A stretch of DNA of 64,000 bases from an uncultured Solirubrobacterales bacterium (GTDB lineage Bacteria; Actinomycetota; Thermoleophilia; Solirubrobacterales; Solirubrobacteraceae), in the NCBI GenBank assembly GCA_963834625.1, contig CAWICM010000009.1, positions 426,706-490,705 of the forward strand, read 5' to 3'. Within the stretch, counting starts at the first letter, position 1. The number at the start of each line of letters is the position of its first letter. A program made the position numbers and the translations under genes. The notes beneath the pieces are model-generated. The model did no database searches. It was not told the DNA's origin and worked only from the letters and a program-made list of their open reading frames with translations. Of the stretch, positions 3,592 through 34,086 are shown piece after piece.

Positions 3592-3620
3592 TTGACTTCA
3601 AAAAGTATAGCGTCTAGACT
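3592..3620 (+). promoter_or_regulatory. Sigma-70-type promoter upstream of sigA
   Basis: TTGACT(3592-3597)-N17-TAGACT(3615-3620) in an AT-rich patch about 120 nt upstream of the ATG. Confidence 0.75.
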
Positions 3621-3741
3621 TCTTTTGCATGTTTAGATAGCGGGCGTGCGCCCTTGGGGGCCCCCGCCCGTTCGTCATCCTCTCTCCCACTCAAGCCGGC
3701 CGTGTCCAGGCGCCGGCGGGTACGACGAGAAACGGAATCAG

Positions 3742-4842: not shown

Positions 4843-4849
4843 CTGTTTC

Positions 4850-4881
4850 GTTGGACGCTCGCCCCGGCGCGCGCGTCCAAC
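4850..4881 (+). terminator. Hairpin downstream of rpoD, putative terminator
   Basis: GTTGGACGC/GCGTCCAAC 9-bp inverted repeat just after the stop; no strong U tract. Confidence 0.5.
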
Positions 4882-4931
4882 CTTCCCCTCTGCGCTCAAG
4901 CCGCGAGCCGTAGCCGTCGATTTCGTAAGGG

Positions 4932-6203
4932 ATGTTCGATCTCCACGAGGCGCTGCGCTACGTCGTTGACAACGAGGGCTCGGACCTTCATGTGAAGGTG
5001 CCCGCGCGTCCGATGGCGCGCTTCCGCGGCCACCTCGAGCCGCTGCCGCAGTACGGCGATCCGCTCACGCCGGCCGATACCGAGCGGGTGCTTCGCCAGA
5101 TGCTCGCCGAGCACTCGGACAAGATGGAGGCGTTCGACTCCGAGAACGAGATCGACTTCTCCTACACCGTGCCCGACCTGGCCCGGTTCCGCGTGAACGC
5201 GTTCCGACAGCGCGGGTCGGTCTCGATCGTGGCTCGCGTGATCCCGTTCAACGTGAAGAGCGTCACCCAGCTCGGGCTGCCCTCGGTGATCGAGACGATC
5301 GCCGAAGAGGAGCGCGGGCTGATCCTGCTCACCGGCACCACGGGCTCCGGCAAGTCGACGACGCTGGCGGCGATCATCAACCACATCAACGAGACCAAGG
5401 CCCGGCACATCGTCACGATCGAGGACCCGATCGAGTATCTGCACCGCGACCGCAACTCGATCATCAACCAGCGCGAGGTCGGGATGGACACCGCGTCGTT
5501 CGGTCGCGCCATGCGCCGTGTCCTGCGTCAGGACCCCGACGTGATCCTGATCGGCGAGATGCGCGACGAGGAGACCGTGCGGACCGCGCTGTCGGCCGCC
5601 GAGACCGGCCACCTCGTGCTCTCCACGGTGCACACTCTGGATGCGGCCGAGAGCGTCAACCGGATCATCGACTTCTTCCAGCCCCATGAGCAGACCCAGG
5701 CGCGCGCGATGCTGGCCGGCACGTTGAAGGCGGTCGTCTCCCAGCGCTTGGTGCCGACCGCCGACGGGTCGGGTCGGGTCGCGGTGTGCGAGATCCTGCG
5801 GATGACCGGCCGGGCGCGCGACATGATCCTCGACCACAACCAGACCGACCGCCTGCGCGAGGTCATCGCCGAGGGCGAGTACTACGGGATGCAGACCTTC
5901 GACCAGGCGCTGTTGCACCACGTAAAGGCCGGTCGCGTCGCGATGGAGGACGCCATCCAGGCCGCCTCCAGCCCGCACGACTTCAAGCTGCTGGTCGCCG
6001 GCGACGGCCGCACGGCGACCTCGATGGACGACCTGGCCCGCGCCGGGTCGGCAGGCGAAGCGCCCACGCCGGCTCGGGGCGGATCCGACCATGAAGGCCC
6101 CGTCCCGGTCCCTGCTTCGCCGGTCCGCGAGCCGAGCCCGTTCGCTGCCGCCGCGCCGACGAACGGCCGGCGCTCGGCGCCGCCCCCCGGCCTGCTCGGC
6201 TAA
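4932..6203 (+). CDS. pilT: PilT/PilU family type IV pilus ATPase with Pro-rich tail
   Basis: SDLH motif, Walker A GTTGSGKST, TIEDPIE, LRQDPDVILIGEMRD, STVHT and GMQTFDQ. Confidence 0.92.
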   Translation: MFDLHEALRYVVDNEGSDLHVKVPARPMARFRGHLEPLPQYGDPLTPADTERVLRQMLAEHSDKMEAFDSENEIDFSYTVPDLARFRVNAFRQRGSVSIVARVIPFNVKSVTQLGLPSVIETIAEEERGLILLTGTTGSGKSTTLAAIINHINETKARHIVTIEDPIEYLHRDRNSIINQREVGMDTASFGRAMRRVLRQDPDVILIGEMRDEETVRTALSAAETGHLVLSTVHTLDAAESVNRIIDFFQPHEQTQARAMLAGTLKAVVSQRLVPTADGSGRVAVCEILRMTGRARDMILDHNQTDRLREVIAEGEYYGMQTFDQALLHHVKAGRVAMEDAIQAASSPHDFKLLVAGDGRTATSMDDLARAGSAGEAPTPARGGSDHEGPVPVPASPVREPSPFAAAAPTNGRRSAPPPGLLG

Positions 6204-6314
6204 ATCGCCGCCGCAGAGTCACCGCGCTGACACGCGCGGCTCTCCCCAGAGGTATAGGCTGCCCGGCTGCAACAAGGCTTGCCGATAGGCGTGGGGAGAG
6301 AAAGAGGAGGTTTG

Positions 6315-9300
6315 ATGGTGCGAAGCACACGTCGAGTGGTGTCCGGATTCGGCCTGCTGGCGGCGGTGATTGCGCTGGGCCAGCTGGCGGGCTCAGCCGC
6401 GGCCACGACGCAGAGCCAGGCCGTGACGCAGCGGGTGATCATCGTCCTGAAGAACCAGGAGAAGAGCCTGCCGCCCAGCAAGGCGCACATCAATCAGCGC
6501 CGGAGCGCGATCGCGGTTTCGCAGGCGCCGATCACCAGTCAGCTCTCCCACTCCGGGGCGCGGGGCGTCCACTCATACGACGTGCTCAACGCGGTGTCCG
6601 CGACGGTCTCCCCGAGCGAGGAGTCCCAGCTCAAGTCGAACCCCGCGGTGAGCCAGGTCGTGCCCGACCAAATCATCCATCTGTCGCCGCCGCAACAGGC
6701 GGCTTCGGGCGCGAGCGCGAGCACGACAACGACCCCGGGGAACATCCCCCTTCCGGGCACGTGCTCGACTAACCCTCAGGCGCCCCAGCTCAACCCCCAG
6801 GCGCTCGAGACGATCAACGCCGACTCGGACGCTGCCCATGCCAAGACGGCCCGCTCGCTCGGGTTGACCGGCGCCGGCGTCACCGTCGGGTTCATCGCCG
6901 ACGGTCTCGACCCCAACAATCCGGACTTCATCCGCCCCAACGGCAAGCACGTGATCGTCGACTACAAGGACTTCACCGGCGAGGGCCTGAACGTCCCCAC
7001 CGGTGGCGAGGAGGAGTTCGGCGACGGTAGCTCGATCGCCGCCCAGGGCCGCGAGGTCTACAACGTCAAGGGCTACAGCGCGCTCGGACCGAAGTCCAAT
7101 TGCTACATCCGCGTTGAGGGCGTTGCCCCCGGCGCGAACCTCGTCGCCCTCGACGTAGCCGGACGCGAAGACGCGTTCTTCAACTCCGAGATCATGCAGG
7201 CGATCGACTACGCGGTCACGACCGATCACGTCAACGTGCTCAACGAGTCGTTCGGCAACAACTTCTATCCCGACGACCAAGCCAACCTCGACCTGATCAA
7301 GCAGGCCAACGACGAAGCGGTCGCGGCCGGCACGACGGTCGCCGTCTCCAGCGGCGACGCCGGCGTGACCAGCACGATCGGCACGCCGTCCACCGACCCG
7401 GAGGTGATCTCCGCGGGCGCGACCACGACGTACCGGATCGACGGCCAGGACGGCTACGGCGGCGCGGCGTTCCCAGGCGTCACCGGTTTCCTGAACAACA
7501 ACATCAGCTCGTTCAGCTCGGGCGGCTTCGAGCAGAGCGGCAGGACGGTCGACGTGGTCGCTCCGGGCGAGCTCAACTGGGCGCTGTGCTCGACCAACAC
7601 GGCGATGTTCGACGAATGCGTCAGCCTGGCCGGGAATCCGACCCCGGTCGACGCCTTCGGCGGCACCAGCGAGTCGGCGCCGCTGACCGCGGGCGTGGCA
7701 GCCCTGGTGATCCAGGCCTACCGCCAGACCCACGGCGGCGCCACGCCGACGCCGGCGATCGTCAAGCAGATCATCACCAGCACGACCGACGACATCGGCG
7801 CGCCGGCCGAGCAGCAGGGCACCGGCCTGATCGACGCCTACAAGGCGAGTCTCGCGGCCGAGTCCTACAACAAGCCCAAGTCGGCAGCCAGTGGGAACAC
7901 CCTCCTGACCAGCGCCGATCAGCTGAACGGCTCCGGGTTGCCCGGCAAGCGCGAGACGCTGACCGACACGGTTACCAACAACGGCAGCAAGGCCGAGACG
8001 CTGTCGCTGTCGACCCGGGCGATCGGGAGCTACCGGTCGCTGAAGAGCGGGACGGTAACGCTCAGCGATACCGCCAGCCCGCACATCCTCGACTGGAATG
8101 GCGTCAACGACAACTACGAGCCGTTCAAGTTCAACGTCCCGGCGGGACAGGACCGGCTCAATGTGTCGGCGGCGTTCCAGAACGCCGGCAACGGCCTGAC
8201 CGACCCAGCCCTTCATGCCCGCGTGCGGATCACGCTGATCGACCCGCAGGGGCGGCTGGCCGAGTACTCGGTACCGCAGGGCGACGGCAACTACGGCAAC
8301 GTCCAGGTCACCGAGCCCATCGCGGGCCAGTGGACGGCGTACATCTACAGCCGCGATTCCGCGGACGGCGGCACGACTGGTCCGGTGGTGGTCGGCGCAA
8401 GCTCGGCCAAGTACACGACGTTCGGCACGGTGTCGCCGTCGAAGGTGACGCTGGCGCCGGGGCAGTCGTTCCCGGTCAACCTGACGGTGTCGACGCCCAG
8501 CTCGCCTGGCGACGCCGCGGGCTCGATCCTGCTCTCTAACGGTTCTCAGACGCTGAGCACGATCGCGGTCACCCTCCGCAGCCTGATCCCGACCGGCCAC
8601 TCCGTGTTCAACGGCGTGCTGACCGGCGGCAATGGCCGGGGGTTCCAGACCGGGGAGATGTTCACCTACCAGATCAACCTCCCGGCCAATCGACCCGAGC
8701 TGAGCGCGACGGTCACGCTGGCCGACAACCCGAACAACGTGTTCGACGCGTGGCTGGTCAATCCGTCCGGGGAGGCGCAGGCATTCGCCGAGAACACGAT
8801 CCCGTTCTCGAGCGGGTCGCAGAATGTGCTCGGGACGCAGTTGCACGTGCCCTCGCCGGCGGGAGGGACGTGGACGCTGATCGTCCTGTTCGCGCCGCAG
8901 GTGTCCGGGATGGCCCTGTCGGAGCCGTTCACGGTGACGACCAACCAGGACGCGATCCCGGTGCAGTCGACTCTGCCGAGTTCGCGGTCGACGAAGCTGA
9001 CGGGCGGCAAGGCCCAGACGTTCAACGTCACGGTCCAGAACAACGGGCCCGACCCCGAGGTGTACTTCCTCGACGCTCGGCTCCCCGAGAGCACGACGGA
9101 GACGTTGGCGACCACGGCCGGGACCACGAACACGGTCAAGGAGCCCAACAGCCAGTTCAATGCCAACCCGTTCGCGGTGTACCTGGTCCCGACGCATACG
9201 ACGTCGCTGGCCGAGTCCGCCACGACCACGGGCCCGCAGCCGATCGAGTTCGACAGCGCCGGACCGGCTGGCGACCCCGATCTCTCGTCGACCGCGGGTA

Positions 9301-9698
9301 GCACCGCTTCGTTGGCGTTCTCGGCCAACCCGGTCGACCAGGGGCTGTGGGACATCGCGCCGACGGAGGTTGGACCGTTCGGAGCGAACCCCGGTCCGAC
9401 CGAGACCGCGACCACGTCGATGTCGGTCACGACCGCCGCGTTCGATACGGACGTCAGCTCGCCCACGGGCGACCTGTGGCAGACGAGCGCCAACCCGTCG
9501 GCGCCGTTCGACCCGGTGGTGGTCCAGCCCGGTCAGAGCGCGACCATCCCGGTCACGATCAAGCCGAGCGCACCGGCGGGCTCGACGGTCAGCGGCACGC
9601 TGTACGTGGATGACACGTCGTTCCTGCTCTACGAGTTCTTCAATGGACTCAACGGCAACGACGTGACGTCCGTGCCGTACACGTACACGGTGAAGTAG
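6315..9698 (+). CDS. Large secreted subtilase-clan peptidase with sedolisin-type catalytic residues and C-terminal beta-sandwich domains
   Basis: RBS GGAGG, signal peptide, I9-like propeptide, EEFGD (E-x3-D), SSGDAG and GGTSESAP. Confidence 0.88.
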   Translation: MVRSTRRVVSGFGLLAAVIALGQLAGSAAATTQSQAVTQRVIIVLKNQEKSLPPSKAHINQRRSAIAVSQAPITSQLSHSGARGVHSYDVLNAVSATVSPSEESQLKSNPAVSQVVPDQIIHLSPPQQAASGASASTTTTPGNIPLPGTCSTNPQAPQLNPQALETINADSDAAHAKTARSLGLTGAGVTVGFIADGLDPNNPDFIRPNGKHVIVDYKDFTGEGLNVPTGGEEEFGDGSSIAAQGREVYNVKGYSALGPKSNCYIRVEGVAPGANLVALDVAGREDAFFNSEIMQAIDYAVTTDHVNVLNESFGNNFYPDDQANLDLIKQANDEAVAAGTTVAVSSGDAGVTSTIGTPSTDPEVISAGATTTYRIDGQDGYGGAAFPGVTGFLNNNISSFSSGGFEQSGRTVDVVAPGELNWALCSTNTAMFDECVSLAGNPTPVDAFGGTSESAPLTAGVAALVIQAYRQTHGGATPTPAIVKQIITSTTDDIGAPAEQQGTGLIDAYKASLAAESYNKPKSAASGNTLLTSADQLNGSGLPGKRETLTDTVTNNGSKAETLSLSTRAIGSYRSLKSGTVTLSDTASPHILDWNGVNDNYEPFKFNVPAGQDRLNVSAAFQNAGNGLTDPALHARVRITLIDPQGRLAEYSVPQGDGNYGNVQVTEPIAGQWTAYIYSRDSADGGTTGPVVVGASSAKYTTFGTVSPSKVTLAPGQSFPVNLTVSTPSSPGDAAGSILLSNGSQTLSTIAVTLRSLIPTGHSVFNGVLTGGNGRGFQTGEMFTYQINLPANRPELSATVTLADNPNNVFDAWLVNPSGEAQAFAENTIPFSSGSQNVLGTQLHVPSPAGGTWTLIVLFAPQVSGMALSEPFTVTTNQDAIPVQSTLPSSRSTKLTGGKAQTFNVTVQNNGPDPEVYFLDARLPESTTETLATTAGTTNTVKEPNSQFNANPFAVYLVPTHTTSLAESATTTGPQPIEFDSAGPAGDPDLSSTAGSTASLAFSANPVDQGLWDIAPTEVGPFGANPGPTETATTSMSVTTAAFDTDVSSPTGDLWQTSANPSAPFDPVVVQPGQSATIPVTIKPSAPAGSTVSGTLYVDDTSFLLYEFFNGLNGNDVTSVPYTYTVK

Positions 9699-9706
9699 CC
9701 GAGTTT

Positions 9707-9738
9707 GGCTGCCGCCCTGCCCGCGCAGGGCGGCAGCC
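9707..9738 (+). terminator. Strong hairpin after the peptidase gene
   Basis: Perfect 14-bp stem GGCTGCCGCCCTGC/GCAGGGCGGCAGCC with a 4-nt loop. Confidence 0.7.
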
Positions 9739-9820
9739 AGTCGCGCGTCGAACAAATGACGCGGACCGGATGCGCCCGCTCACTTCAGTTCGTGAAGCAT
9801 TGCGCTAACATAGGCGTTGG

Positions 9821-10207
9821 ATGGCTATTTCGAATGACACCTGCCCGGTGTGCCGCACGGCCGACATCGTCTGCGGCAAGTGGACGCTGCTGGTGATCCG
9901 CGACCTGGCCGAAGGTCGATCGCGGTTCTGCGAGCTCGAGCGTTCCCTGCACGGCATCAGCCCGCGCACGCTGTCGCTGCGGCTGCGCGCGCTGGAGGAG
10001 GAGGGCGTCGTCGAGCGCCAGACCTTCCCCGAGGTCCCGCCGCGAGTCGAGTACGCCCTGACCGACAAGGGCCGGGCGCTCGTCCCGCTGATCGAGGACA
10101 TGCGGGCGTACGGCCTCAAGTGGCTGTTCGAGGAGGACTGCGATGAACCGGCCGCCGGCGAGAGCGCCGCGGTCGATGATCGCGAGCCGGCGATCGCCGC
10201 GGTCTGA
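9821..10207 (+). CDS. HxlR-family winged-helix transcriptional regulator
   Basis: CPV...GKWTLLVIRDL...RFCELERSLHGISPRTLSLRLRALE...PPRVEYALT. Confidence 0.92.
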   Translation: MAISNDTCPVCRTADIVCGKWTLLVIRDLAEGRSRFCELERSLHGISPRTLSLRLRALEEEGVVERQTFPEVPPRVEYALTDKGRALVPLIEDMRAYGLKWLFEEDCDEPAAGESAAVDDREPAIAAV

Positions 10208-10218
10208 CCGCTGCGACG

Positions 10219-10668
10219 ATGCGGATCGCGCTGTCCGCCGATGAGCTGACGGGGATCGCCTCGGCGATACCCGAGGAGCTGCGGCGACGCGGCCACGAGC
10301 CGGTGCTGCACGGTGCCTACTCTCCGGATCGCGAACGTCCAGACTGGGCGTGGGCGAGCGAGATGGCGGCTCGCGACGTGGCCGAGGGGCGGGCCGAGCA
10401 GGCCATCGTCGCGTGCTGGACGGGAACCGGCGCCTCGATCGCGGCCAACAAGGTCGCGGGCATCCGCGCGGCCCTGTGCGCCGACGCGGCCACCGCCTCC
10501 GGGGCGCGCCGCTGGAACGACGCCAACGTGCTCGCGCTGAGCCTGCGTGCGACCTCGCAGGCCGAGCTCGAGGAGATCCTCGACGCCTGGTTCGCGGGTG
10601 GCGCCAGCGACGAGGCCGACGACGTCGAGAACATCGCGCACCTGGCGGTCATCGAGAGCGCCCGCTAG
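10219..10668 (+). CDS. rpiB: RpiB/LacA/LacB family sugar-phosphate isomerase
   Basis: CWTGTGASIAANKVAGIRAA and WNDANVLAL motifs. Confidence 0.9.
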   Translation: MRIALSADELTGIASAIPEELRRRGHEPVLHGAYSPDRERPDWAWASEMAARDVAEGRAEQAIVACWTGTGASIAANKVAGIRAALCADAATASGARRWNDANVLALSLRATSQAELEEILDAWFAGGASDEADDVENIAHLAVIESAR

Positions 10669-10716
10669 GCGCGGACTCGGGAAGAAACTTCAGCATGGTG
10701 GGGGTTTCTTCCCAAG
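10665..10716. repeat. REP-like palindrome, copy A of the GGGAAGAAAC/GTTTCTTCCC family
   Basis: 10-bp perfect stem (10679-10688/10704-10713) after the rpiB stop. It shares GTTTCTTCCCAAG with 35447-35459. Confidence 0.6.
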
Positions 10717-10753
10717 GGGAGGAAACGCCGTACGAGATCGCGAACCGGCGGAC

Positions 10754-11998
10754 GTGCGCAACACCACGCTCCACGGGGTCATCGAGGCCTTCGCCACCGA
10801 GGCGGCGATGCAGCTCACGGCCGAGACGTCCTCGGGGGCGGAGATCCCGTTCGAGCTGGTCGAGACGACGGGCGGACCACGGGGCCGCGTTCCGCTGTAT
10901 TGCTATCGCCCGCTCACCGGGTCGTTCATCCGCGAGCGGCTGGGACTGCTCGCCGCCATGCCCACCTATGCGCCGGCGCTGCGCGCGCTGAGCGCGCTGG
11001 ACGGGGTCGAGGCGTACCTGCACCAGCGCGGGGAGCGGCGGATCCCGGACGAGCCGCGCGAGTGCGCCGACGCCGCGTTGCGCGTCTTCCTGTCCGAGGT
11101 GTTCGCCGAGCGGACCGAGTTCGGGTTCGATCCCGACCGGTTCGAGGACGCTTACGAGGAGCTCGAGCGGGCCCTGTACGAGGGGCGGGCGGTGACCACG
11201 GTGGTGGCACCCGTGCTGGGCGTGGTGCTGGACCCGGACACCCGCGAGCTGGCCCTCGGTGACGGCCTCTCATTGATCGCCGGCGACGCGCTCGAGGACG
11301 CGCCGTCCGAGGCGGTGTGGGGGGACGGGGAGGAGCCGCACGTGCTGATCGTCCTGACCGCGGCCCAGGACCGGACCGCGCCGGCTCCCGTGTCGGTGGC
11401 GCGGGCCCGCTTTCGCCGCACCCTGACCGCGCTGCGGCTGTTCGAGCGCGGCGGCTATGCCCTCGGCCCGGTGGCGTGGACGCGGATCGACGACGGCGCC
11501 TGGCGCTCGGTGGCGCTGGGCGGCAGCGGGCGTCCCGGCCTGCCCCGGCGGATCGCGGCCGAACAGGAGGACGAGCTGCGGGCCTTCTGCAACCTCGTGG
11601 CGCGCCGGACGCCGCGCAGCGGGGAGATCGCCTGGGCGCTGGCCCGGTTCGAGATGGGCTGTGAGCGCCTCGCGCCGTTCGAGGCGCTGACCGACTACCT
11701 GCTGGCCCTGAGAGCCCTGCTCGAGCCCGAGGGCACGGCCAGCGGGCGGCTGGCCGGCCGCCTGGCGGCGATCTGCGCAGGGCCGGAGGATCGCGCCGCG
11801 GTGGCCGAGCGCACCGCCCACGCGATCTCGCTGGAGCGGGCGGTGATCGGGGGCCTCGCGCCGGCCCATCCCGGCGTCGACTCACTCGTCGACGAGCTCA
11901 CCGAGTACCTGCGGGCCCTGCTCAGGGACGTGCTCTGCGGCCATCTCCACGCGGACCTTTGTGCGGTCGCGGACGAGCTGCTCGCCCAGGCGGTCTGA
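10754..11998 (+). CDS. Hypothetical protein with a possible degenerate ApeA-like HEPN C-terminal domain
   Basis: The C-terminal helical pattern ALARFE...EALTDYLLALRALLEP...LAGRLAAI resembles ApeA-type HEPN, but there is no R-x4-H motif. GTG start at 10754. Confidence 0.6.
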   Translation: MRNTTLHGVIEAFATEAAMQLTAETSSGAEIPFELVETTGGPRGRVPLYCYRPLTGSFIRERLGLLAAMPTYAPALRALSALDGVEAYLHQRGERRIPDEPRECADAALRVFLSEVFAERTEFGFDPDRFEDAYEELERALYEGRAVTTVVAPVLGVVLDPDTRELALGDGLSLIAGDALEDAPSEAVWGDGEEPHVLIVLTAAQDRTAPAPVSVARARFRRTLTALRLFERGGYALGPVAWTRIDDGAWRSVALGGSGRPGLPRRIAAEQEDELRAFCNLVARRTPRSGEIAWALARFEMGCERLAPFEALTDYLLALRALLEPEGTASGRLAGRLAAICAGPEDRAAVAERTAHAISLERAVIGGLAPAHPGVDSLVDELTEYLRALLRDVLCGHLHADLCAVADELLAQAV

Positions 11999-14138: not shown

Positions 14139-15152
14139 ATGACCGCCGTCAGGCTGACCTCGCTATCGCACGGCGCCGGCTGTGCGTGCAAGGTGCCCGC
14201 GGCGCTGCTCGCGCCCCTTATCCAGGATCTACCGCGCTCGGCCGATCCGGACCTGCTGGTGGGCACCGAGACGAGCGACGACGCGGGCGTCTACCGCCTG
14301 CGCGAGGACCTGGCGCTGGTGCAGACCGCCGACTTCTTCACCCCGATCGTCGACGATCCCTACGACTTCGGGCGGATCGCCGCCACCAACGCCCTGTCCG
14401 ACGTGTACGCGATGGGAGGCCGGCCGGTCAGCGCCCTGAACCTGGTGGCGTGGTCGATTGCCGACCTCGGCGCGGAGATGCTCGGAGAGGTGCTGCGCGG
14501 TGGCTACGACGTGGTCAGCGCGGCCGGGGCGGTGATCGTGGGCGGCCACACGATCGACGACCCCGAGCCCAAGTACGGCCTGGCGGTCACCGGCGTGCTC
14601 GACCCGGCCGACCTGATCACGAACGCCGGCGGACGCGCCGGGGACGCGCTGGTCCTGACCAAGCCCGTCGGGGCGGGCGCGATCACTACATCGTTGAAGA
14701 AGGGATTGGTCGGCGACGAGACACTGGCGGCTGCGGTCGAGGTCATGACCGAGCTCAACGAGACCGCGGCGCAGGCGGCGCGGGCAGCGGGCGCCCGCGC
14801 GATGACCGACGTGACCGGCTTCGGGCTGCTCGGTCATCTGCACGAGCTGACCCTGGCCAGCGGCGTGGCCGCTGAGATCGAGGCCCGGGCAGTGCCCGCG
14901 ATCGACGGCGCGCTCGAGCTTCTGGCCGACGACCGGGCGGTCGCCGGCGGGAGCCGCAACAACCGCCGCTATGCCGAGGAGTTCGCCGTGTTCGAGGACG
15001 ACGTCGACGAGGTGCGCAGGAGGCTCGTGACCGACGCGATGACCTCGGGTGGGCTGCTCGTGGCGGTTGATCCGGCGCGGGCCGACGAGATCCCGGGCGC
15101 GCTGATCGGGCGGCTCACCACCGGCGAGCCGGGCACGATCAGCGTCATTTGA
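14139..15152 (+). CDS. selD: Selenide, water dikinase (Cys-type active site)
   Basis: HGAGCACK, DDAGVY, DFFTPIVDDPYDFGRIAATNALSDVYAMGG, DVTGFGLLGH and TSGGLL. Confidence 0.96.
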   Translation: MTAVRLTSLSHGAGCACKVPAALLAPLIQDLPRSADPDLLVGTETSDDAGVYRLREDLALVQTADFFTPIVDDPYDFGRIAATNALSDVYAMGGRPVSALNLVAWSIADLGAEMLGEVLRGGYDVVSAAGAVIVGGHTIDDPEPKYGLAVTGVLDPADLITNAGGRAGDALVLTKPVGAGAITTSLKKGLVGDETLAAAVEVMTELNETAAQAARAAGARAMTDVTGFGLLGHLHELTLASGVAAEIEARAVPAIDGALELLADDRAVAGGSRNNRRYAEEFAVFEDDVDEVRRRLVTDAMTSGGLLVAVDPARADEIPGALIGRLTTGEPGTISVI

Positions 15153-15822
15153 GGCGTTCCAGGTCCTCGCGCGCCGCGACGCCCAGGTATCGCCCCTCGG
15201 GCGTGGTGACGATCGCCCAGCGATAGCCCCTGTCGGCCAGGAAGCCGGCGACCTTACCTGCGGATGCGTGCGGGCGAAATGTTTTCGGGCCAGGCTCCGC
15301 GACGTCCCAGACCGGCCCCGCTGAGGCGGGATCCAGGACGGTGGACGGAGCTCGCCCGAGCAACGTGCGGTCGTCGCTCGTGACCAGCGCGAACGGGTAG
15401 GGCGAACGCTCGATCGACTCGCACACCTCGGCGATGCGATCGGTAGGACGGCACAGCGCGGCGTCGTCGCGCATCGCGCGTCCAGCGGTCGGCGCGTAGG
15501 TCTCGTCGCCTTCAAGCGGCAGGTTGTGTGCCAGCCAGTCGACCTTCCCGGGCACGTAGTCGTAGACGTCGGTGAACCCGAGCGTGTCGAGCCGGCACGC
15601 GGCTCGTGGACTGAGGTCTCAGAGGGAGTCCCAGCAGTACACGACCACCGGTCGGGTGCGATCGAGTACAGCCGCGTGCTGCTCGTCGAGCTCGCGCAAC
15701 GGCAGGTTGACCGCGCCCGGAAGGTGCGCCGGGGCGTAGTCGTCGCTGGGCAGCACCTCGACCAGCTGCGATCCCCGGTCGATCAGCTCCTGGAGTTGCT
15801 CTAGGCAGATCGGCGTGGCCAT
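15145..15822 (-). CDS. Rhodanese-CBS domain protein, probable selenoprotein (in-frame UGA at 15621-15619)
   Basis: Track ORFs 15619..15822 and 15145..15555 share a frame. Read-through gives VVVYCWDSL-U-DLSPRAACRLDTLGFTDVYDYVPGKVDW, which completes the rhodanese domain, followed by a CBS pair. Confidence 0.8.
15588..15606 (-). promoter_or_regulatory. Candidate bacterial SECIS hairpin
   Basis: CGAGCCG-CGTGC-CGGCTCG; the loop starts 20 nt after the UGA and has G at loop position 2. Confidence 0.6.
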
Positions 15823-15834
15823 GGTGCCGGGTGG

Positions 15835-26691: not shown

Positions 26692-28731
26692 ATGTCACAT
26701 TCACGCGCCCGCAGGCTGATCGCCTGCGCGTCAGCCATCGCCATGACCGTTCTCGTCCTGGGGGCGCCGGTCGCCAGCGCCCGAACGGGCCAGGGGCGGG
26801 CCGCCAAGACCAGCAAAGCCGCCCGCGTGTGGTTCCCGCGCGACGTGCTGGCGCTTCACTACGGCACCAACCTGGGCGCGGCGAACCCCTCGCAGGTGAT
26901 GCAGATCGGGATCGGTCTGAAGGATCCCCACCCGGCGCGGGAGGCCGCGCTCGAGAACGCCCTGCGCAATCCGGCCAACGCCCAATACCAGCGCTTCCTC
27001 ACCCCGGCCCAGTTCGACTCGCGCTTCGGCGTCTCCAAGGCCACGTACTCGCGCGTGCTGACGTGGCTTCGGAACGGCGGCGCGAAGGTGATCGAGACCG
27101 CCGGTGCCCGGAACTACGTCGAGATCTCGGCCACCGTCAAGCAGGTCGACGGCCTGTTCGGAACCCAGGAGAACCGCTATCGGGCCAAGGGCGTGACGTT
27201 CCTGGCCAACAAGTCGGCGCCGAGCGTGCCTGCGCGCATGGACATCCTGGCCATCGTTGGTCTGAACACGCTCGAGCATCCGACCACGCCGCTCGCGAAT
27301 GCCCACCGGGGCGTGCGGGCACCCGGATCCTCGGTGCTCGGCCTGCCGACCGCGCCCGCCCAGCTTCCGTCGATCCCGGGCGAGAGCACGCTGACCGGCA
27401 CGATCCAGAACGTGCTTGGCTCGCTGCCCGGCCTGCCCGGCGGCAACCCGCTGCACTCGCACCTGAGTGTTCCGGCGGTGTCGGCGCCGACGATCCCGGC
27501 CGAGCTCACCCCGCAGGACATGTGGTCGATCTACGACATGCCGTCGAACAACGAGGGCCAGGGCCAGTCGATCGCGATCATGGGCTCGGGCGACTCGAGC
27601 ACGACCGTCAAGGACCTGGCGATCTTCGAGTCCGAGCACGGCCTGCCCAAGGTGCCGGTCCAGGTCACCGACATTCCCAAGGACGGCGACTTCTCCGACA
27701 CGGGCGGCAACGTCGAGTGGGAGCTCGACACGCAGTCCTCGACCGGCGTGGCTCCCGATGTCAAGAAGGTCCACCTGTACTTCGCCCAGCACCTGGTCGA
27801 CCCCGACGTCGAGTCCGACTTCGTCAAGTGGGTCGACGATCCGAGCGGGCCCAAGCAGGCCAACGCGTCGTTCGGCGAGTGCGAGACCACGCCGGCCAAC
27901 GCGACGCTGGAGAGCACGATCCCGCCGCAGTTCAACAACAACGTGGACCAGAACGCGATGTACGGGACCGGCGCGCCCGACGCGCTCGAGCCGGTCGCCG
28001 AGCAGACGCTCGAGCAGGGCGTGCTCGAGGGCCGGACCCTGTTCGCCGCCACCGGAGACACCGGCTCCTCCTGCCCGGTGCTGGTCCTCGGCCCGGACCT
28101 GGGCGCCGGCAATGGCGTGGCCAACCAGGGCGTGCCGATCGTCAACTACCCAGCTGCCAGCCCGAACGTGGTCGCGGTCGGCGGCACCGTCCTCTACCCC
28201 GACGGCGGCAATCCCCCGCAGCGGGCGGTCGAGTACCCGTGGCCGTACACGGGCGGTGGCCAGAGCTTCTTCATCCCAGAGCCCGCGTTCCAGGCGGGTG
28301 ATTCGGCGGTGAACCGGCCCTGCGTGTCGGATGTGAGCGGCAACCCGAACACCTCGGGGGTCACCTGCCGGGGCATCCCGGACGTGGCCGACGAGTCGGG
28401 CGACATCGCCACCAGCTCCTACGACATCTACAGCGACGAGCTCGGCGGCGCCTCGAGCGAGGGCGGCACGAGCCTCTCCTCGCCGCTGATGGTGGGCATG
28501 TGGACGCGGATCCAGGCGGCCTCGAAGCGTGGAACCGGTTTCGCAGACCCGGACATCTACCGGATCGCCGAGAACGCCACCGACTACGCCCGCGACTTCA
28601 ACGACTACGAGGCGGGGACCAACGGCGCCTACCAGGCCCTACCCGGGTGGGACTACGTCTCGGGCTGGGGCACCCCGGTGCTCGCGCCGTTCATGACCGA
28701 CGTGGACGGCCGCACCGCCCCGGTTCGCTAA
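26692..28731 (+). CDS. Secreted S53 (sedolisin/kumamolisin) peptidase with activation prodomain
   Basis: Prodomain YQRFLTPAQFDSRFG, EWELD (E-x3-D), ATGDTG, PDVA, GGTSLSSP and GWDYVSGWG. Confidence 0.93.
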   Translation: MSHSRARRLIACASAIAMTVLVLGAPVASARTGQGRAAKTSKAARVWFPRDVLALHYGTNLGAANPSQVMQIGIGLKDPHPAREAALENALRNPANAQYQRFLTPAQFDSRFGVSKATYSRVLTWLRNGGAKVIETAGARNYVEISATVKQVDGLFGTQENRYRAKGVTFLANKSAPSVPARMDILAIVGLNTLEHPTTPLANAHRGVRAPGSSVLGLPTAPAQLPSIPGESTLTGTIQNVLGSLPGLPGGNPLHSHLSVPAVSAPTIPAELTPQDMWSIYDMPSNNEGQGQSIAIMGSGDSSTTVKDLAIFESEHGLPKVPVQVTDIPKDGDFSDTGGNVEWELDTQSSTGVAPDVKKVHLYFAQHLVDPDVESDFVKWVDDPSGPKQANASFGECETTPANATLESTIPPQFNNNVDQNAMYGTGAPDALEPVAEQTLEQGVLEGRTLFAATGDTGSSCPVLVLGPDLGAGNGVANQGVPIVNYPAASPNVVAVGGTVLYPDGGNPPQRAVEYPWPYTGGGQSFFIPEPAFQAGDSAVNRPCVSDVSGNPNTSGVTCRGIPDVADESGDIATSSYDIYSDELGGASSEGGTSLSSPLMVGMWTRIQAASKRGTGFADPDIYRIAENATDYARDFNDYEAGTNGAYQALPGWDYVSGWGTPVLAPFMTDVDGRTAPVR

Positions 28732-29505: not shown

Positions 29506-30486
29506 ATGATGTTCGGCGTAGGGATGCCCGGGGTCGACGAATCGCTTGCTCAACGCCTCCTCGCCGGTGATCGCCGGGCGCTCGCGCGAGGCATCTCGCT
29601 GGTCGAGAATGACGACCCCGAGGGATGGGCGCTGGTCAAGGAGGTCTATCCGCGCACCGGCCGCGCCGCGGTGTTCGGCTTCACCGGGCCGCCCGGGGCG
29701 GGCAAATCCACCCTGCTCGGCGCGCTGATCAAGCTCGAGCGGGCACGCGAGCGGACCGTCGCGGTGCTCTCGATCGACCCCACCTCTCCGTTCACCCAGG
29801 GCGCCCTGCTCGGCGACCGCATTCGCCTGACCGACCACTTCCTGGACCCCGGCGTGTTCATCCGCTCGATGGCCAGCCGGGGCGCCCTGGGCGGGCTGAG
29901 CGAGGCCTCGCTCCAGGCCGCACTGCTGATGGACGCGGCCGGCCGCGATGTGATCATGCTCGAGACCGTGGGGGTGGGCCAGGCCGAGGTTGACATCATC
30001 GACCACGCCGATACGGTCGTTCTCGTGTTGATGCCAGGGTCGGGGGATTCGATCCAGGCCCTCAAGGCCGGCGTGATGGAGATCCCCGACGTGATCGTGG
30101 TCAACAAGGCAGACCACCCGCTGACGGACACGATGGTGCGCGAGATCAAGAACGTGCTGGCGCTGGGACCCCAGGAGGGCTGGAAGGTGCCGATCGTCAA
30201 GACCGAGGCGGTCCGGGCTGAGGGGATCGAGGAACTGGCCGAGAAGCTGGCCGAGCATCACGCCTACGTGGAGGCCGAGGGAACGCTGTCCGAACGCCGG
30301 CGGCGTAACCTCATGAACGAGGTGATCGGGCTGGCCGCCTACCGCATGCGCCGCGAGCTCGAGGCCTCGATCCGGGACGATCCGGAGGTTCAGGCGCTGC
30401 TCGACCGCGTGGTGGCGCGCGAGATCGATCCGGCCAGTGCCGCGACGACCGTGCTCGAGCGCCGGGCGCAGGAGTTGGCGCGGTGA
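29506..30486 (+). CDS. meaB: Acyl-CoA mutase-associated GTPase chaperone MeaB/ArgK
   Basis: GPPGAGKST, GGL, IDPTSPFTQGALLGDRIR, ETVGVGQ and NKAD. Confidence 0.95.
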   Translation: MMFGVGMPGVDESLAQRLLAGDRRALARGISLVENDDPEGWALVKEVYPRTGRAAVFGFTGPPGAGKSTLLGALIKLERARERTVAVLSIDPTSPFTQGALLGDRIRLTDHFLDPGVFIRSMASRGALGGLSEASLQAALLMDAAGRDVIMLETVGVGQAEVDIIDHADTVVLVLMPGSGDSIQALKAGVMEIPDVIVVNKADHPLTDTMVREIKNVLALGPQEGWKVPIVKTEAVRAEGIEELAEKLAEHHAYVEAEGTLSERRRRNLMNEVIGLAAYRMRRELEASIRDDPEVQALLDRVVAREIDPASAATTVLERRAQELAR

Positions 30487-30971
30487 GCGCGGCGCTCGCG
30501 CCCCCGTTCCTGGTGGCCGCGCTGCTCGTGTGCGTCGCCGGTGCACTCAAGCTCCGCTCCCCGGATCGCGCCGCGGCGGCGTTCCGGACGTCTCCCTGGG
30601 CGATCCGTGGGCTGGCCGTCGTCGAGGTGGCGCTCGGAGTCGTATGCGTGCTGGCCCCGACCCGGCCGCTCGCGGTCGCGCTGGCGGTGCTCTACGGCGC
30701 CTTCTCGGTCCTCGCCGTCACCCTCATGCGTCGTGGCGTCCCTTGCGGGTGCTTTGGAGATAACGACTTACCGGTGTCGCTCGCCCACGTCATCGCCAGC
30801 GAGCTACTGGGCGTGCTGGCCCTCGGCGCGGCGCTCACCGGTCCGCGCAGCCTCGGGTGGGCGCTGGACCAGCCGGCGGCGCTCCTCGTCGGGATCGCGG
30901 GGGCGCTGTACGCCACCCTGCTCGTGTACACGCAGATGCCCGCGGCGTGGGCGGCGTGGAGCGGCGAATGA
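30483..30971 (+). CDS. MauE/DoxX family membrane protein
   Basis: Hydrophobic helices, GALK near the N-terminus and the GVPCGCFG motif. Confidence 0.85.
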   Translation: MSAALAPPFLVAALLVCVAGALKLRSPDRAAAAFRTSPWAIRGLAVVEVALGVVCVLAPTRPLAVALAVLYGAFSVLAVTLMRRGVPCGCFGDNDLPVSLAHVIASELLGVLALGAALTGPRSLGWALDQPAALLVGIAGALYATLLVYTQMPAAWAAWSGE

Positions 30972-31579
30972 GCTTCGTTTCTCACGCCGGCGAGCTGCTC
31001 GCGCGGCGTACGTCCCGGCGCGGAGCGCTGGCGCGAGCGGCCGTGGCGGGCGCCGCCTTTGCGGTCGCCCCGGTCCGCTACCTGGTCCGCCCGGGCACGG
31101 CGTGGGCGGTTCTCCAGCCCACTGATTGCCCGCACGGCGCCAAATGCCGCGATGGCTACACCGCTTTTTGCTGCGAGATCGAGGACGGCAACAACGTCTG
31201 CCCGCCGGACACCTACATCGCGGGCTGGTGGAAGTGCACGAGCTACCGGGGCACCGGTCTGTGCGCCGGGCAGGGCGCGCGCTACTACATCGACTGCAAC
31301 CGGGTTCCCGGGACGGTGTTCCCGGGCGGCTGCCAGTGCGCGCATGGCGACTGCCACCACCGCGCTGTCGACTGCAACCACTTCCGCTACGGGCAGTGCA
31401 ACACGCAGATCGCCGGCACCACCGAGGTGGTCTGCCGGCTCGTGCTGTGCCGCAACCCGGCCACCGTCCCCGGCATGAACTGCAACGCAACCGAGATGGT
31501 CGACGACCGCACCTGCACGCACGACAACCCGTGTCTACAGGGTCTGGCCAAGCAGCTGCCCGGAGGAGGGGGCGCCTAG
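30968..31579 (+). CDS. Tat-exported Cys-rich protein resembling an amine dehydrogenase light chain (MauA-like)
   Basis: SRRGAL twin-arginine signal, 18 Cys in the mature part, and the pattern C.DG...CC...CPPDT..AGWWKC...YYIDC. Confidence 0.6.
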   Translation: MSFVSHAGELLARRTSRRGALARAAVAGAAFAVAPVRYLVRPGTAWAVLQPTDCPHGAKCRDGYTAFCCEIEDGNNVCPPDTYIAGWWKCTSYRGTGLCAGQGARYYIDCNRVPGTVFPGGCQCAHGDCHHRAVDCNHFRYGQCNTQIAGTTEVVCRLVLCRNPATVPGMNCNATEMVDDRTCTHDNPCLQGLAKQLPGGGGA

Positions 31580-31628
31580 CTGTGGTCGCCTCCGCAAATA
31601 CGCCCGCATTCGAGGTGCCCCCGGCGGC

Positions 31629-31694
31629 GCTGCGCTTTGTCCTCGGATCCTCACGTAGCTCTGCTACGCATCGGATCCTGCGTCCTCGCGCAGC
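31629..31694. repeat. Nested palindromic intergenic element
   Basis: GCTGCGC/GCGCAGC outer stem, paired GGATCC sites and an inner CGTAGC-TCT-GCTACG hairpin. Confidence 0.65.
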
Positions 31695-31714
31695 ATCCAC
31701 CGGTGACACCTCTC

Positions 31715-31747
31715 GGTGCGACCGTACTTACGGAGGAGACCACTAGT
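31715..31747 (+). repeat. 33-bp dispersed repeat, copy 2 (supplies the RBS and GTG of the mauD-like gene)
   Basis: GGTGCGACCGTACTTACGGAGGAGACCACTAGT. Confidence 0.85.
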
Positions 31748-32369
31748 GGTCGCCGTGGTGTCGGTCGAGACGGTGCTGCTCGTGCTGTTGGTCGTGCTCG
31801 TGGCGGCGCTCCTGCGCAGCCACGCCGAGATCCTCCGCCGGCTCGGCCCCGAGGGCGCTGCCGCGCCACGCCTGCCCGATCCGCCGGCTGGCGCCCGACC
31901 GGACACCGAGGCCCCCGAGATCGCCGGCGTCACCCCCACCGGGGACGCGATCAAGCTGAGCCTGAGCGGAACGCCGACCCTGCTCGCCTTTTTGAGCAGC
32001 GGCTGCACCAGCTGCGCCCGCTTCTGGGAGACGCTCTCCGATCAGCGCCTGCCCGATGGTCTGCAGCCGATGATCGTCACCCGCGGCCCCGATCGCGAGC
32101 AGCGCTCGAAGCTCCGCTCGATGGCCCACCCTGCCGTCCCCGTGGTGATGTCCTCCGAGGCCTGGGCGGACTACGCGGTGCCGGGCTCGCCCTACTTCGT
32201 CATGGTGCAGGACGGCGAGATCCGCGGCGAGGGCGTCGCCACGACGTGGGACGCACTCACCTCGCTGCTCGGCGATGCGGTCGAGGAACAACGCGGGATC
32301 GAGGAGCGGCTGGCCGCGGCGGGAATCGGACCAGACCATCCGAGCCTATTTCCGGGAGGACGCGTCTGA
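31746..32369 (+). CDS. Membrane-anchored thioredoxin-like protein (MauD-like)
   Basis: N-terminal TM helix, FLSSGCTSC (CxxC) and PGSPY (cis-Pro motif). Confidence 0.8.
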   Translation: MVAVVSVETVLLVLLVVLVAALLRSHAEILRRLGPEGAAAPRLPDPPAGARPDTEAPEIAGVTPTGDAIKLSLSGTPTLLAFLSSGCTSCARFWETLSDQRLPDGLQPMIVTRGPDREQRSKLRSMAHPAVPVVMSSEAWADYAVPGSPYFVMVQDGEIRGEGVATTWDALTSLLGDAVEEQRGIEERLAAAGIGPDHPSLFPGGRV

Positions 32370-33019
32370 CCGCGCTGATCGTCCTCGGCTGCTCGGCCTC
32401 GGTCACGGCCGCGGTCGCCGCCGCCTGGTCGCCCTGAGGCGAGTCGATGCTCGCGAGCATCACCCCGCTCGGCGAGCGGGGACGACATTCTCGGTGGGGC
32501 CTCACGGTGGGTGCGTTTCTGGTGAGCGCCACCGCGGCGGGCGTCGGCGCCGGGGCCATGCTCGGGATGCTCGGCTCGGTCGTGGTGCCGCCGCATGGCA
32601 CATTGCCGATGCTGCTCGTGGCGATCGCAGTCGCGGTCATCCTGGACGGCCTACCCCGCGCCGTACCGGGGCCTCGGCGCCAGGTCGATGAGCGCTGGCT
32701 CGACCGGTACCGCGGCTGGGTCTACGGCGTGGGCTACGGGGCCCAGCTGGGTCTTGGCGTGACCACGATCGTGTCGAGCGCGGCGACCTACGTGGCGGGA
32801 CTGGCCGCGTTCCTGACGGCGAACGCCGCGGGCGGCGCGATCGTCCTCGGCTGCTTCGGCGCGGTGCGAGGCCTCACTCCGCTGGCGGCCGCCGGCGTTC
32901 GGAACCAACGTCAGCTGCTCGAGTTCCACCGCGCCCTGGCACGGTGGCGCGTGCCGGCCCGATGGGCCGTCGTGGCCGCCCAGGCTGGGATGCTCGTCCT
33001 CGCGCTGGTGCTCTCGTGA
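32366..33019 (+). CDS. MauF/CcdA-like polytopic membrane protein, probable selenoprotein (in-frame UGA at 32435-32437)
   Basis: The upstream in-frame segment reads LTALIVLG...AAAWSP-U-GESMLASITPLGERG, where WSPC is the expected Cys motif. There is a GGAGG RBS and a CTG start overlapping the upstream TGA. The track calls only 32447..33019. Confidence 0.7.
32446..32461 (+). promoter_or_regulatory. Candidate SECIS hairpin for the MauF-like gene
   Basis: GATGCT-CGCG-AGCATC; the loop starts 15 nt after the UGA and has G at position 2. Confidence 0.5.
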
Positions 33020-33483
33020 CCGCGCTCGAGGCGCACGGGCTGCGGGTCGAGCTGCCGCGGGGCTGGAGCGGCCGGGTGTTCAAGCGCCCGGCGGGCGGCG
33101 CCACCCTCCACGCCGGCGACTTCCAGCTCCCGCTCGAAGACGGCGAGTTCGGCGATCGCAGCACCGCCGCGATGCCCGCCGGCGCCTCGTTCCTCGCGCT
33201 GACCGAGTATCGCCCGGGCAAGGGCCTCGCGCCCGGGCAGGGGCTGTTCGCCTCGCGCCTGGTGCCGACGACGCTCGATCCGACCGCGTTCAGTCCCCGG
33301 GGCCTTGCCCACCCACTCCCGGGCCAGCTGGGCGCGCAGCACTTCTTCACGACCGCCGGCCGGCCGTTCTGCCTGTACGTCGTGGTGTCAGGCCCCCGTT
33401 CGGAGCGCCGGCATCAGCTCGCCGTGCTCGGCCACGTGCTGCGCTCGCTGCGGATTCAGCCCGGGGCGAGCAAACCGGTGTAG
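33016..33483 (+). CDS. Hypothetical protein, last gene of the mau-like operon
   Basis: GTGA overlap with the upstream gene; no family recognised. Confidence 0.7.
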   Translation: MTALEAHGLRVELPRGWSGRVFKRPAGGATLHAGDFQLPLEDGEFGDRSTAAMPAGASFLALTEYRPGKGLAPGQGLFASRLVPTTLDPTAFSPRGLAHPLPGQLGAQHFFTTAGRPFCLYVVVSGPRSERRHQLAVLGHVLRSLRIQPGASKPV

Positions 33484-33983
33484 CGCGCGGCGTCGTGCCC
33501 GAGGACGCCGATGCACGGCGTCAGGTTGGTCCGCGTGCGGTTGACGTAGGTCGCGCTGATCGCGCTGGCCGTGTTCCCGGCGCTCGCCGTCACCCGCACC
33601 GTGATCCGGAACGGGATCTCCTGGCCGCGTGGATAGATCCGCCCCGAGCAGCGCAGCGGGGCGTAGAAGAGCCCGTTGCCGGCGTAGGTTCCCGGTCGGG
33701 TGAGGCCAAGTGTGAGCGTGTCGGAGCCCGTCGCCCGGCCGCGCACCAGCCGCACGGTGGCGCAGGGAGCGCTCACGCACTGCGGGGTGAACGTCCAGGT
33801 GCGCTCCACGAGGAGACCGGCGCGCTCGCCACGGACGTGGTCGGCCACGGTCACGGTGCCGCTCATCTGAAAGGTGCCCTTGGGTTGCGCCGGCGGATTG
33901 GGCGGCTGGGCTTGGGCCGAGGCGGCGATGACTCCGCCCGGGACGGCGATCGCGAGCACCGCGGCGAGGACGTGCCGGCTCAT
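33456..33983 (-). CDS. Secreted hypothetical protein
   Basis: C-terminal part of the track ORF 33456..34979; signal peptide MSRHVLAAVLAIAVPGGVIAASAQA; four Cys. Confidence 0.7.
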   Translation of the reverse strand: MSRHVLAAVLAIAVPGGVIAASAQAQPPNPPAQPKGTFQMSGTVTVADHVRGERAGLLVERTWTFTPQCVSAPCATVRLVRGRATGSDTLTLGLTRPGTYAGNGLFYAPLRCSGRIYPRGQEIPFRITVRVTASAGNTASAISATYVNRTRTNLTPCIGVLGHDAARYTGLLAPG

Positions 33984-34086
33984 CCCCCGAGGGCGCGGGC
34001 GAGGGCTCATGCCCCGAGGGCGCGGGCGAGGGCTCATGCCCCGAGGGCGCGGGCGAGGGCTCATGCCCCCAGCGCGCGGGCGATCA
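33979..34086 (-). repeat. 27-nt tandem repeat duplicating a stop/start (ATGA) junction
   Basis: CTCAT(G/C)CCCCGAGGGCGCGGGCGAGGG x3 at 33979, 34006 and 34033, plus the native junction at 34060. Confidence 0.9.

Follow-up and report, generated by a model that had tools for sequence, protein, structure and literature searches.

A 64,000-nucleotide stretch of DNA with a G+C content of about 70%, called the window here, encodes proteins that are nearest to those of metagenome-assembled genomes of the Solirubrobacterales (Thermoleophilia, Actinomycetota). On its + strand lies a five-gene cassette for a MauE-like protein, an exported protein with a twin-arginine translocation (Tat) signal and 18 cysteines (referred to below as the client), a MauD-like protein, a MauF-like protein, and a conserved protein designated gene 5. 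The most unusual feature of this locus is an in-frame TGA in the MauF homologue, which the first-pass annotation missed. We consider it highly likely that this TGA is read as selenocysteine (Sec), because there is synonymous variation on both sides of it, its hairpins are frozen, the window includes selD, and a second gene has a conserved TGA. On balance, we favor the view that the cassette is a dedicated Mau-type thiol/selenol redox system that matures a disulfide-rich exported client, one that is not a canonical amine dehydrogenase. The features on which the argument draws are as follows.

30483 to 30971, + strand: mauE-like gene for an integral membrane protein of 162 amino acids with a CGCF motif (Pfam PF07291 MauE, 39.6 bits; cutoff, 27)
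30968 to 31579, + strand: gene for the client, a Tat-signal 18-Cys exported protein of 203 amino acids (TIGR01409 TAT signal, 19.4 bits versus 16.7), with the signal at about 30968 to 31108 and the mature domain at 31109 to 31576
31716 to 32369, + strand: mauD-like gene for a membrane-anchored thioredoxin-fold protein with an N-terminal transmembrane (TM) anchor and a CxxC motif, GCTSC (NCBIfam TIGR02661, tblastn)
32366 to 33019, + strand: mauF homologue of 217 codons whose frame continues across a TGA; predicted selenoprotein with motif WSP-U-GESMLASITPLGERG (hhalign, tblastn)
32435 to 32437, + strand: the in-frame TGA, a candidate Sec codon (TGA in every locus that contains the region)
32447 to 32460 and 32463 to 32481, + strand: two conserved hairpins, candidate selenocysteine insertion sequence (SECIS) elements (RNAalifold consensus, synonymous suppression)
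33016 to 33483, + strand: gene 5, a conserved protein of 155 amino acids with no signal peptide (co-conserved; GTGA overlap with mauF)
14139 to 15152, + strand: selD, selenophosphate synthetase, Cys form (TIGR00476, 385.5 bits; cutoff, 125)
15145 to 15834, - strand: rhodanese-CBS gene with an in-frame TGA at 15621 to 15619 (Pfam Rhodanese match of 50.8 bits that spans the TGA, and a CBS match)
29506 to 30486, + strand: meaB GTPase gene (TIGR00750, 325 bits), which overlaps mauE by 4 nt

Relatives of the client provided the material for comparison. Scanning one genome for each GTDB species yielded 228 loci with a gene for such a relative; 80 of these were fetched, and 74 of the 80 extend far enough for gene order to be judged. 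Loci L082, L088, and L090 represent three distant actinobacterial lineages, and L085 is the Thermomicrobium roseum megaplasmid NC_011961. Searches for the Sec machinery and for mau genes covered the 64-kb window and the related loci with their flanks.

The open reading frame called at 32447 to 33019 extends upstream over a single TGA into a hydrophobic helix, reading LGCSASVTAAVAAAWSP before the TGA and GESMLASITPLGERGR after it, and the predicted Sec-containing segment of the protein is AAWSP-U-GESMLASITPLGER. The MauF-like gene had been taken to begin at ATG 32447; it appears to start instead at CTG 32366, 23 codons upstream of the TGA and within the CTGA overlap with the stop codon of the mauD-like gene. 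The closest relatives begin in the same way, and more distant ones have ATG, GTG, or TTG in this column, so that the position 23 codons 5' of the TGA holds ATG, GTG, TTG, or CTG in nearly all sequences, with a few starts a codon or so off. The corresponding segment of MauF from Paracoccus reads LLSTWSPCGYSSISLLRPDGRG, with the motif WSPCG, and tblastn with this protein aligned through the TGA, placing the stop symbol opposite the cysteine of WSPCG (E, 1e-11). When the 72-sequence family, with U written as C, was compared with Paracoccus MauF by hhalign, the probability was 97.3% (E, 1.8e-11) over 161 columns that span the TGA. Homology with MauF is firm on these alignments. Both the window protein and Paracoccus denitrificans MauF (WP_011750949.1) are predicted to be polytopic, have WSP-[C/U]-G-x-S at the end of a TM helix, and share the segment RRQV...W(V)xG..YG..LGL; the window protein differs in lacking an N-terminal extension of about 55 amino acids and in having TGA as the conserved Cys codon. 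General family models do not capture either protein: the window homologue had no Pfam or NCBIfam match at E values of ≤10, and Paracoccus MauF had no NCBIfam match at E values of ≤0.001.

The same TGA in the same context is present in every related locus that includes the region. This includes L082, L088, and L090, in which the clients are 39 to 48% identical to that of the window and have other fusions. The T. roseum megaplasmid also encodes a MauF homologue with the same in-frame TGA (WSP-TGA-GYSM; TGA at 10744), annotated only from the ATG downstream of the TGA. The 120 best database homologues all cover ≤88% of the full-length query, as expected if the gene calls for these homologues begin after the TGA.

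The codons that flank the TGA are conserved as amino acids, with variable third positions. TCN and CCN (S22 and P23) precede it and GGN, GAR, and TCN (G25, E26, and S27) follow it. By our tally, variant sequences in the nine-base interval from the TGA to the next ATG number about 29 at third codon positions, 3 at second positions, and 1 at first positions. The T. roseum gene has codons for GYS directly after its TGA, and Paracoccus MauF likewise has GYS at this point. Synonymous variation is suppressed farther downstream: synonymous entropy is 0.64 bits over codons 25 to 41 and 1.21 bits over the remainder of the gene (Mann-Whitney P = 5.5e-4). The hairpin stems contain frozen codons (AGC in 72/72 sequences, ATC in 72/72, CCG in 70/72, GAG in 71/71, and CGG in 70/71), and the hairpin-loop codon GGN uses all four bases. 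Coding constraint on both sides of a UGA together with suppressed synonymous change is, at the level of sequence, the classical signature of a Sec codon with a structured element. The predicted protein resembles known bacterial selenoproteins (PMC13188914) in that the UGA is at the position of a conserved Cys, a hairpin follows, selD is present, and the product is a probable thiol-redox protein. It differs from them in that the Sec would be in a membrane protein that has no partner Cys in the same chain. The 2026 inventory of prokaryotic selenoproteins comprises 119 families, and neither MauF nor any methylamine-utilization family is among them (PMC13188914). Searches of the literature for selenocysteine in connection with MauF, MauE, Conexibacter, Solirubrobacter, or T. 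roseum returned no relevant report.

Several results weigh against the reading of the TGA as Sec. RNAalifold found no two-sided covariation in the MauF hairpins, and their loops do not carry a conserved GU spaced as it is in the lineage's rhodanese hairpin. No SECIS or other Rfam family was found at the MauF locus, and the fold z-scores of the hairpins are not significant. Queries with Escherichia coli SelA and SelB did not find selA or selB in the window or the related loci; tRNA-Sec was not found in the available sequence, and there is no tRNA in the window. Furthermore, the fourth codon after the TGA is an invariant ATG with GAGG before it, an arrangement that could also reflect termination followed by re-initiation.

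If the TGA were a true stop, MauF would be split into a 23-amino-acid micro-protein that consists of the first TM helix (TM1) and ends in WSP, and a 190-amino-acid protein whose translation would re-initiate, coupled to that of the first, at the ATG 9 nt farther on; a hairpin would mask this ATG until the upstream ribosome arrives. The sequence UGAGG provides a GAGG Shine-Dalgarno element 7 nt before this ATG, which is invariant in all TGA forms (Paracoccus MauF has Ser there) and lies within the stem of hairpin 1, and both gene callers and the NCBI annotation report only the 190-amino-acid product. However, the break would then fall exactly at the codon for the single conserved Cys of MauF. 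The three codons that would be mere spacer correspond by homology to residues of MauF; they preserve the amino acids (GES, or GYS in T. roseum) and differ among sequences in the third base. In addition, the TGA is kept over two phyla, and both selD and a second gene with a conserved UGA are present in the organism. We regard a split MauF as distinctly unlikely.

Translation of the TGA as Sec is easier to accept in an organism that uses selenium, and the presence of selD in the window supports such use; the encoded SelD is 45% identical to that of E. coli (E, 6e-78). The rhodanese-CBS gene is divergent from selD and adjoins it, and the active-site loop of its product, YCWDSL-U-DLSPR, holds an in-frame TGA (YCWDSL-TGA-DLSPRAA). 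This TGA is present in 72/72 metagenomic relatives, down to 35% identity, and many of these genes are also beside selD. A hairpin of 7 to 8 bp with a CGUGC or GUG loop follows at +16 to +34 nt after the UGA and shows compensatory changes. The rhodanese-CBS protein is probably a selenoprotein that serves selenium delivery; it did not match any dedicated NCBIfam selenoprotein model above the cutoff. T. roseum was not among the listed selD matches on plasmids. A screen of the window based on G+C content at third codon positions gave four other in-frame TGA candidates (8548, 11884, 54401, and 56892), which look like antisense frames and were rejected. The pairing of selD with a Sec-rhodanese-CBS candidate points to wider selenium use in the Solirubrobacterales than is annotated.

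The genes around mauF form a conserved unit. The order meaB, mauE, client, mauD-like gene, membrane gene, gene 5 is kept in 74/74 Solirubrobacterales loci that reach far enough, and the five genes of the cassette recur together, in other orders, in L082, L088, and L090. The arrangement is not due to chance, because it combines synteny in 74 loci with co-occurrence in three distant lineages. The mauE-like gene is upstream of or beside the client gene in all related loci, and one MauE-client fusion protein exists (P0123). The meaB neighbor is syntenic within the Solirubrobacterales and absent from L082, L088, and L090; its adjacency is lineage specific, and outside the Solirubrobacterales it is not part of the module. 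The first-pass annotation had placed a mau-like operon here, with genes mostly joined by 4-nt overlaps, and the genes and their positions agree with that description. The overlaps are GTGA (meaB/mauE), ATGA (mauE/client), CTGA (mauD/mauF), and GTGA (mauF/gene 5), and the exception is a gap of 136 to 166 nt between the client gene and the mauD-like gene. The operon conservation that was to be checked, and the gene identities, also stood: MauE passes the Pfam threshold, MauF homology is as described above, and the MauD-like protein is a distant homologue of MauD. For the latter, NCBIfam TIGR02661 (MauD) gave only 30 bits against a cutoff of 188, and Paracoccus MauD matched orthologues of the gene with E values down to 2.6e-8 in tblastn. 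The likely true start of the mauD-like gene is GTG 31746, after a GGAGGAG site.

An imperfect palindrome, GGATCC-TCA-CGTAGC-TCT-GCTACG-CATC-GGATCC, lies at 31645 to 31678 in the gap between the client gene and the mauD-like gene. A terminator scan found no T-tract terminator there, and the ratio of client to helper expression might be set at this site.

Gene 5 had no Pfam, NCBIfam, or PDB match. Its homologue in L088 (6551 to 7477) is fused to a C-terminal fasciclin (FAS1) domain, and the L088 client itself carries a PLL beta-propeller. As a rule, FAS1 domains are found outside the cell, and the fusion raises the question of where gene 5 acts. It is possibly a cytoplasmic chaperone.

The client was described at the outset as a Tat-signal protein with 18 cysteines that retains DG, CPP.T, and a Trp, and it is so: the TIGR01409 score exceeds its threshold, DG, CPPDT, and GWWKC are present, and the exactly 18 cysteines are invariant among 27 orthologues with 70 to 88% identity, as are GWWKC, RYY.DCNR, and NHFRYGQCN. 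An exhaustive profile search found that the wider family comprises 506 clusters at 50% identity, 368 of them at E values of ≤1e-10. One cluster is named from Iamia sp. (Acidimicrobiia), and the family therefore spans at least two actinobacterial classes; no relatives were found in the plasmid collection. The family domain has about 150 residues with 16 to 24 cysteines, in mostly even numbers. It stands alone in the window. Many members are 400 to 740 amino acids long, with a Tat leader, then the Cys-rich domain at the N terminus, and then extra domains. The C-terminal partners include LGFP repeats, CWB2 cell-wall-binding domains, DUF4214, PLL-type beta-propellers, and B-lectin domains. No Pfam family matched the Cys-rich domain in any of 49 members scanned. 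Among 133 diverse members, eight cysteines are fully invariant and most of the remaining Cys columns hold Cys in ≥120 sequences. Other residues that are invariant or nearly so (mature numbering) include N29, P32, G39, W40 (126 of 133), W41 (133), R58, Y59, D62 (132), R85, F92, Y94 (131), R110, P117, T135, and H138. The conserved polar residues suggest a functional site beyond the disulfide scaffold. An AlphaFold model built from the 133 diverse sequences is compact and confident, with a predicted local distance difference test (pLDDT) score of 93.5 and a predicted template modeling score of 0.86; with only the 27 close orthologues as input, the pLDDT was 34.

The arrangement of Mau homologues around such a protein recalls the mau and aau clusters (Paracoccus denitrificans mauFBEDACJGMN and Pseudomonas aauBEDA), which likewise have MauE, MauD, and MauF homologues around a small protein that is rich in Cys and has a twin-arginine leader. 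The window order E-client-D-F resembles E-D-A, and the client and the light chains share the collinear motif C..C.DG...CPPxT...W...Y.DC. The differences are substantial. The window does not have MauB or AauB, MauG, amicyanin, a cytochrome, MauJ, MauM, or MauN; the second Trp of the tryptophan tryptophylquinone (TTQ) cofactor is missing in the window clade; UGA replaces the Cys codon in MauF; and gene 5 is extra. The client has about 156 amino acids and 18 cysteines, versus about 131 amino acids and 12 cysteines for a light chain.

As the first-pass annotation proposed, no heavy chain or MauG is encoded nearby. MauB and two other heavy chains had no tblastn match with an E value below 0.4 in the window or 85 related loci. 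Paracoccus MauG had no match in the window, and its best match in the 85 loci had an E value of 0.9. Paracoccus MauJ, MauM, and MauN had no tblastn match in either. None of these families, CCP_MauG included, was among the Pfam matches near four relatives (within 10 kb on either side of one). Weak amicyanin-like (cupredoxin) tblastn matches, with E values down to 4e-7, occur in 10 related loci (L028, at 14559 to 14840, and nine others), about 6 kb downstream of the cassette, and not in the window.

Kinship of the client with TTQ light chains had been suspected, and the evidence for it is mixed. The light-chain family Pfam PF02975 (Me-amine-dh_L) matched neither the window client nor 49 family members at E values of ≤10, and single-sequence (phmmer) and profile (hmmsearch) searches of the PDB with the client gave only noise. 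The structure prediction that was to test the likeness did not bear it out: in a Foldseek search of the PDB with the confident model, the best E value was 0.7 and no light chain was listed, small disulfide-rich folds being hard for Foldseek. The profile-profile comparison was marginally positive. It used annotated light-chain records from Paracoccus, Pseudomonas, Novosphingobium, Indioceanicola, Cupriavidus, Chimaeribacter, Burkholderia, and Thermomicrobium. With leaders included, hhalign gave a probability of 96.5%, which we discounted as evidence of homology because the Tat leader/signal peptide supplies most of the score. With mature domains only, the probability was 33 to 56% and the score was 27.9, a narrow margin over a maximum of 25.7 in 60 column shuffles and a score of 13.9 for the reversed profile. 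The aligned stretch, C..C.DG...C...G..CPPxT....W, sets the invariant W41 opposite Trp57, the TTQ-forming Trp, and a permissive alignment also matches RYY.D62C with AYRD76CC. In the client model, W41 and D62 are on two strands (residues 35 to 43 and 58 to 65) with a 14-residue loop between them, and in the light chain of methylamine dehydrogenase (MADH), Trp57 and Asp76 sit on neighboring strands likewise. Thus, the collinear motifs lend weak support to kinship. Remote homology of the N-terminal half of the client with light chains is plausible, and on these tests the client is not a member of the TTQ light chains.

The residue equivalent to Trp57 (W88 of the window protein, mature W41) is invariant (133/133). 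The statement that no later Trp is available for a cross-link holds for the window client and 26 orthologues, none of which has a Trp beyond W88. It does not hold for the wider family, in which mature position 118 is Trp in 84 of the 133 members and Tyr in 20 more; in the window clade this position is Ala. Because there is no heavy chain, no MauG nearby, and no second Trp in the clade, the system as judged from its genes is not a TTQ amine dehydrogenase.

The client might still be a true quinoprotein that works without a heavy chain. In that case W88 would become a Trp-derived quinone, either uncross-linked or linked to Trp or Tyr118, as most of the family would allow, or to Tyr94, and the Mau cassette and gene 5 would help make the cofactor. 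Collinearity with the MADH active site is extensive (D15-G16 with Asp32, CPPxT, W41 with Trp57 in 133/133, and Y-x-D62-C with Asp76 in 132/133), and the client has many invariant polar residues. The only other known setting for MauE, MauD, and MauF together is with TTQ light chains, a TGA-containing MauF accompanies two-Trp light-chain-like proteins in T. roseum, and the 96.5% hhalign result, for the Tat leader plus the N-terminal segment, points in the same direction. However, there is no gene for MauG, a flavoprotein hydroxylase, or a radical-SAM enzyme in or near the module, the match between mature domains is marginal, Pfam, PDB, and Foldseek returned nothing, and the candidate partner Trp118 is Ala in the window clade. 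We therefore judge a quinoprotein to be unlikely. A bolder version would make the client a new kind of quinoprotein that has no heavy chain, forms its Trp quinone without MauG, and depends on a Sec-containing MauF for maturation, with MauE, MauD, and MauF being an ancient general selenol/thiol machine of which the proteobacterial amine dehydrogenases are one offshoot; this is a long shot.

Two further explanations of the Cys-rich client were considered. The client might bind metal or Fe-S clusters and be exported folded, with the Mau homologues protecting or loading its thiols. The 18 cysteines are invariant, and a Cys-rich protein that has a Tat signal is typically a redox protein with a cofactor. 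However, the ferredoxin-type spacing CxxCxxC...CP is absent, there is no Fe-S or metal-binding Pfam match, and the mostly even Cys counts fit disulfides; the MADH small subunit also has a twin-arginine leader (SRRS) and binds no metal. Metal binding is very improbable on this evidence. Even less weight can be given to the proposal, made for Streptomyces clusters, of precursors of ribosomally synthesized and posttranslationally modified peptides (RiPPs), or bacteriocin-like precursors, modified by MauE and MauD homologues. The decRiPPter study reported candidate RiPP families in which mauE and mauD homologues are beside precursors with at least 8 cysteines (PMC7794033), a pairing that resembles the one seen here. 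The client, however, is exported by the Tat pathway, and its domain of about 156 residues has a confident globular model and shows strong conservation from end to end. It is often the N-terminal domain of cell-wall-bound proteins of 400 to 740 amino acids, and there is no leader/core architecture, protease, or exporter. A RiPP-like client is hardly credible.

The conserved five-gene module is best read as it was first proposed from the genes alone, as a system dedicated to maturing an exported, disulfide-rich client. Each Mau homologue keeps one redox motif: CGCF in MauE, CxxC in the MauD-like protein, and U/C in MauF. By analogy, we infer that the three act together at the membrane as a client-specific thiol/selenol-disulfide relay. 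MauE would contribute a membrane protein with a CxC motif, the MauD-like protein an outward-facing thioredoxin fold with CxxC, and MauF its sole conserved redox residue at the end of TM1, where the UGA would be read as Sec and would provide a more reactive exchange center. The relay may oxidize, isomerize, or proofread the roughly nine disulfides of the client after its export. mauF mutants, like mauE and mauD mutants, specifically fail to accumulate the disulfide-rich small subunit. According to van der Palen et al. (1997), as cited in PMC7794033, mauE and mauD are genetically needed for the MADH small subunit. Two considerations tell against this relay. The non-Cys residues N29, W41, R58, D62, R110, Y94, and H138 suggest an active or binding site in the client, and the cassette may therefore do more than form disulfides. 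Moreover, the relay is built by analogy because, to our knowledge, no biochemical role has been established for MauE, MauD, or MauF.

The proposed relay has some likeness to the DsbD/CcdA transporters, which have an "SPC"-like motif in a TM helix and a periplasmic thioredoxin-fold partner, and some JGI records name MauF homologues CcdA or TauE/SafE. The window MauF differs from these transporters in having one conserved redox residue, not two, and it had no DsbD or DsbD_2 match in Pfam or NCBIfam at E values of ≤10. Membership in the DsbD/CcdA group was rejected on both counts.

The T. roseum locus (L085, about 2000 to 11400) provides a second setting for a TGA-containing MauF. As in the window, this MauF and a MauE-domain protein are beside Cys-rich Tat proteins. 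Unlike the window client, those of T. roseum are recognizable light-chain homologues with both Trp residues, annotated as "methylamine dehydrogenase light chain." There are several such light-chain-like genes, with hypothetical proteins of 390 to 456 amino acids between them, and a MauE fusion of 596 amino acids. T. roseum is a cultured species of the Thermomicrobiota and is tractable for work on Sec in MauF.

Two other features flank the cassette. Upstream, a gene at 26692 to 28731 (+ strand) encodes a secreted S53 peptidase of the sedolisin/kumamolisin type, with pro-kumamolisin activation and subtilase-like domains; only some syntenic relatives have one. Just 3' of the cassette, beside an acyl-CoA dehydrogenase gene, a 27-nt unit is repeated four times (96% matches) at 33977 to 34083, one frame of which encodes repeated MSPRPRPRG.

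MauE, MauD, and MauF have been known since the 1990s to be genetically required and have stayed biochemically unexplained. The locus described here is a variant Mau accessory system that serves a protein family without a Pfam model and that very probably includes a selenoprotein family missing from the 2026 inventory. A natural Cys-to-Sec exchange at the single conserved Cys of MauF would mark this residue as redox active and provide a handle on MauF function. If the TGA is translated as Sec, a membrane-embedded family would join the list of bacterial selenoproteins, and current gene calling would truncate the mauF-type gene in thousands of records (2535 matches). The client family provides extracytoplasmic domains, often tethered to the cell wall, in Actinomycetota that are abundant in soil, and these domains may have a role in binding, in catalysis, or in carrying a new cofactor.

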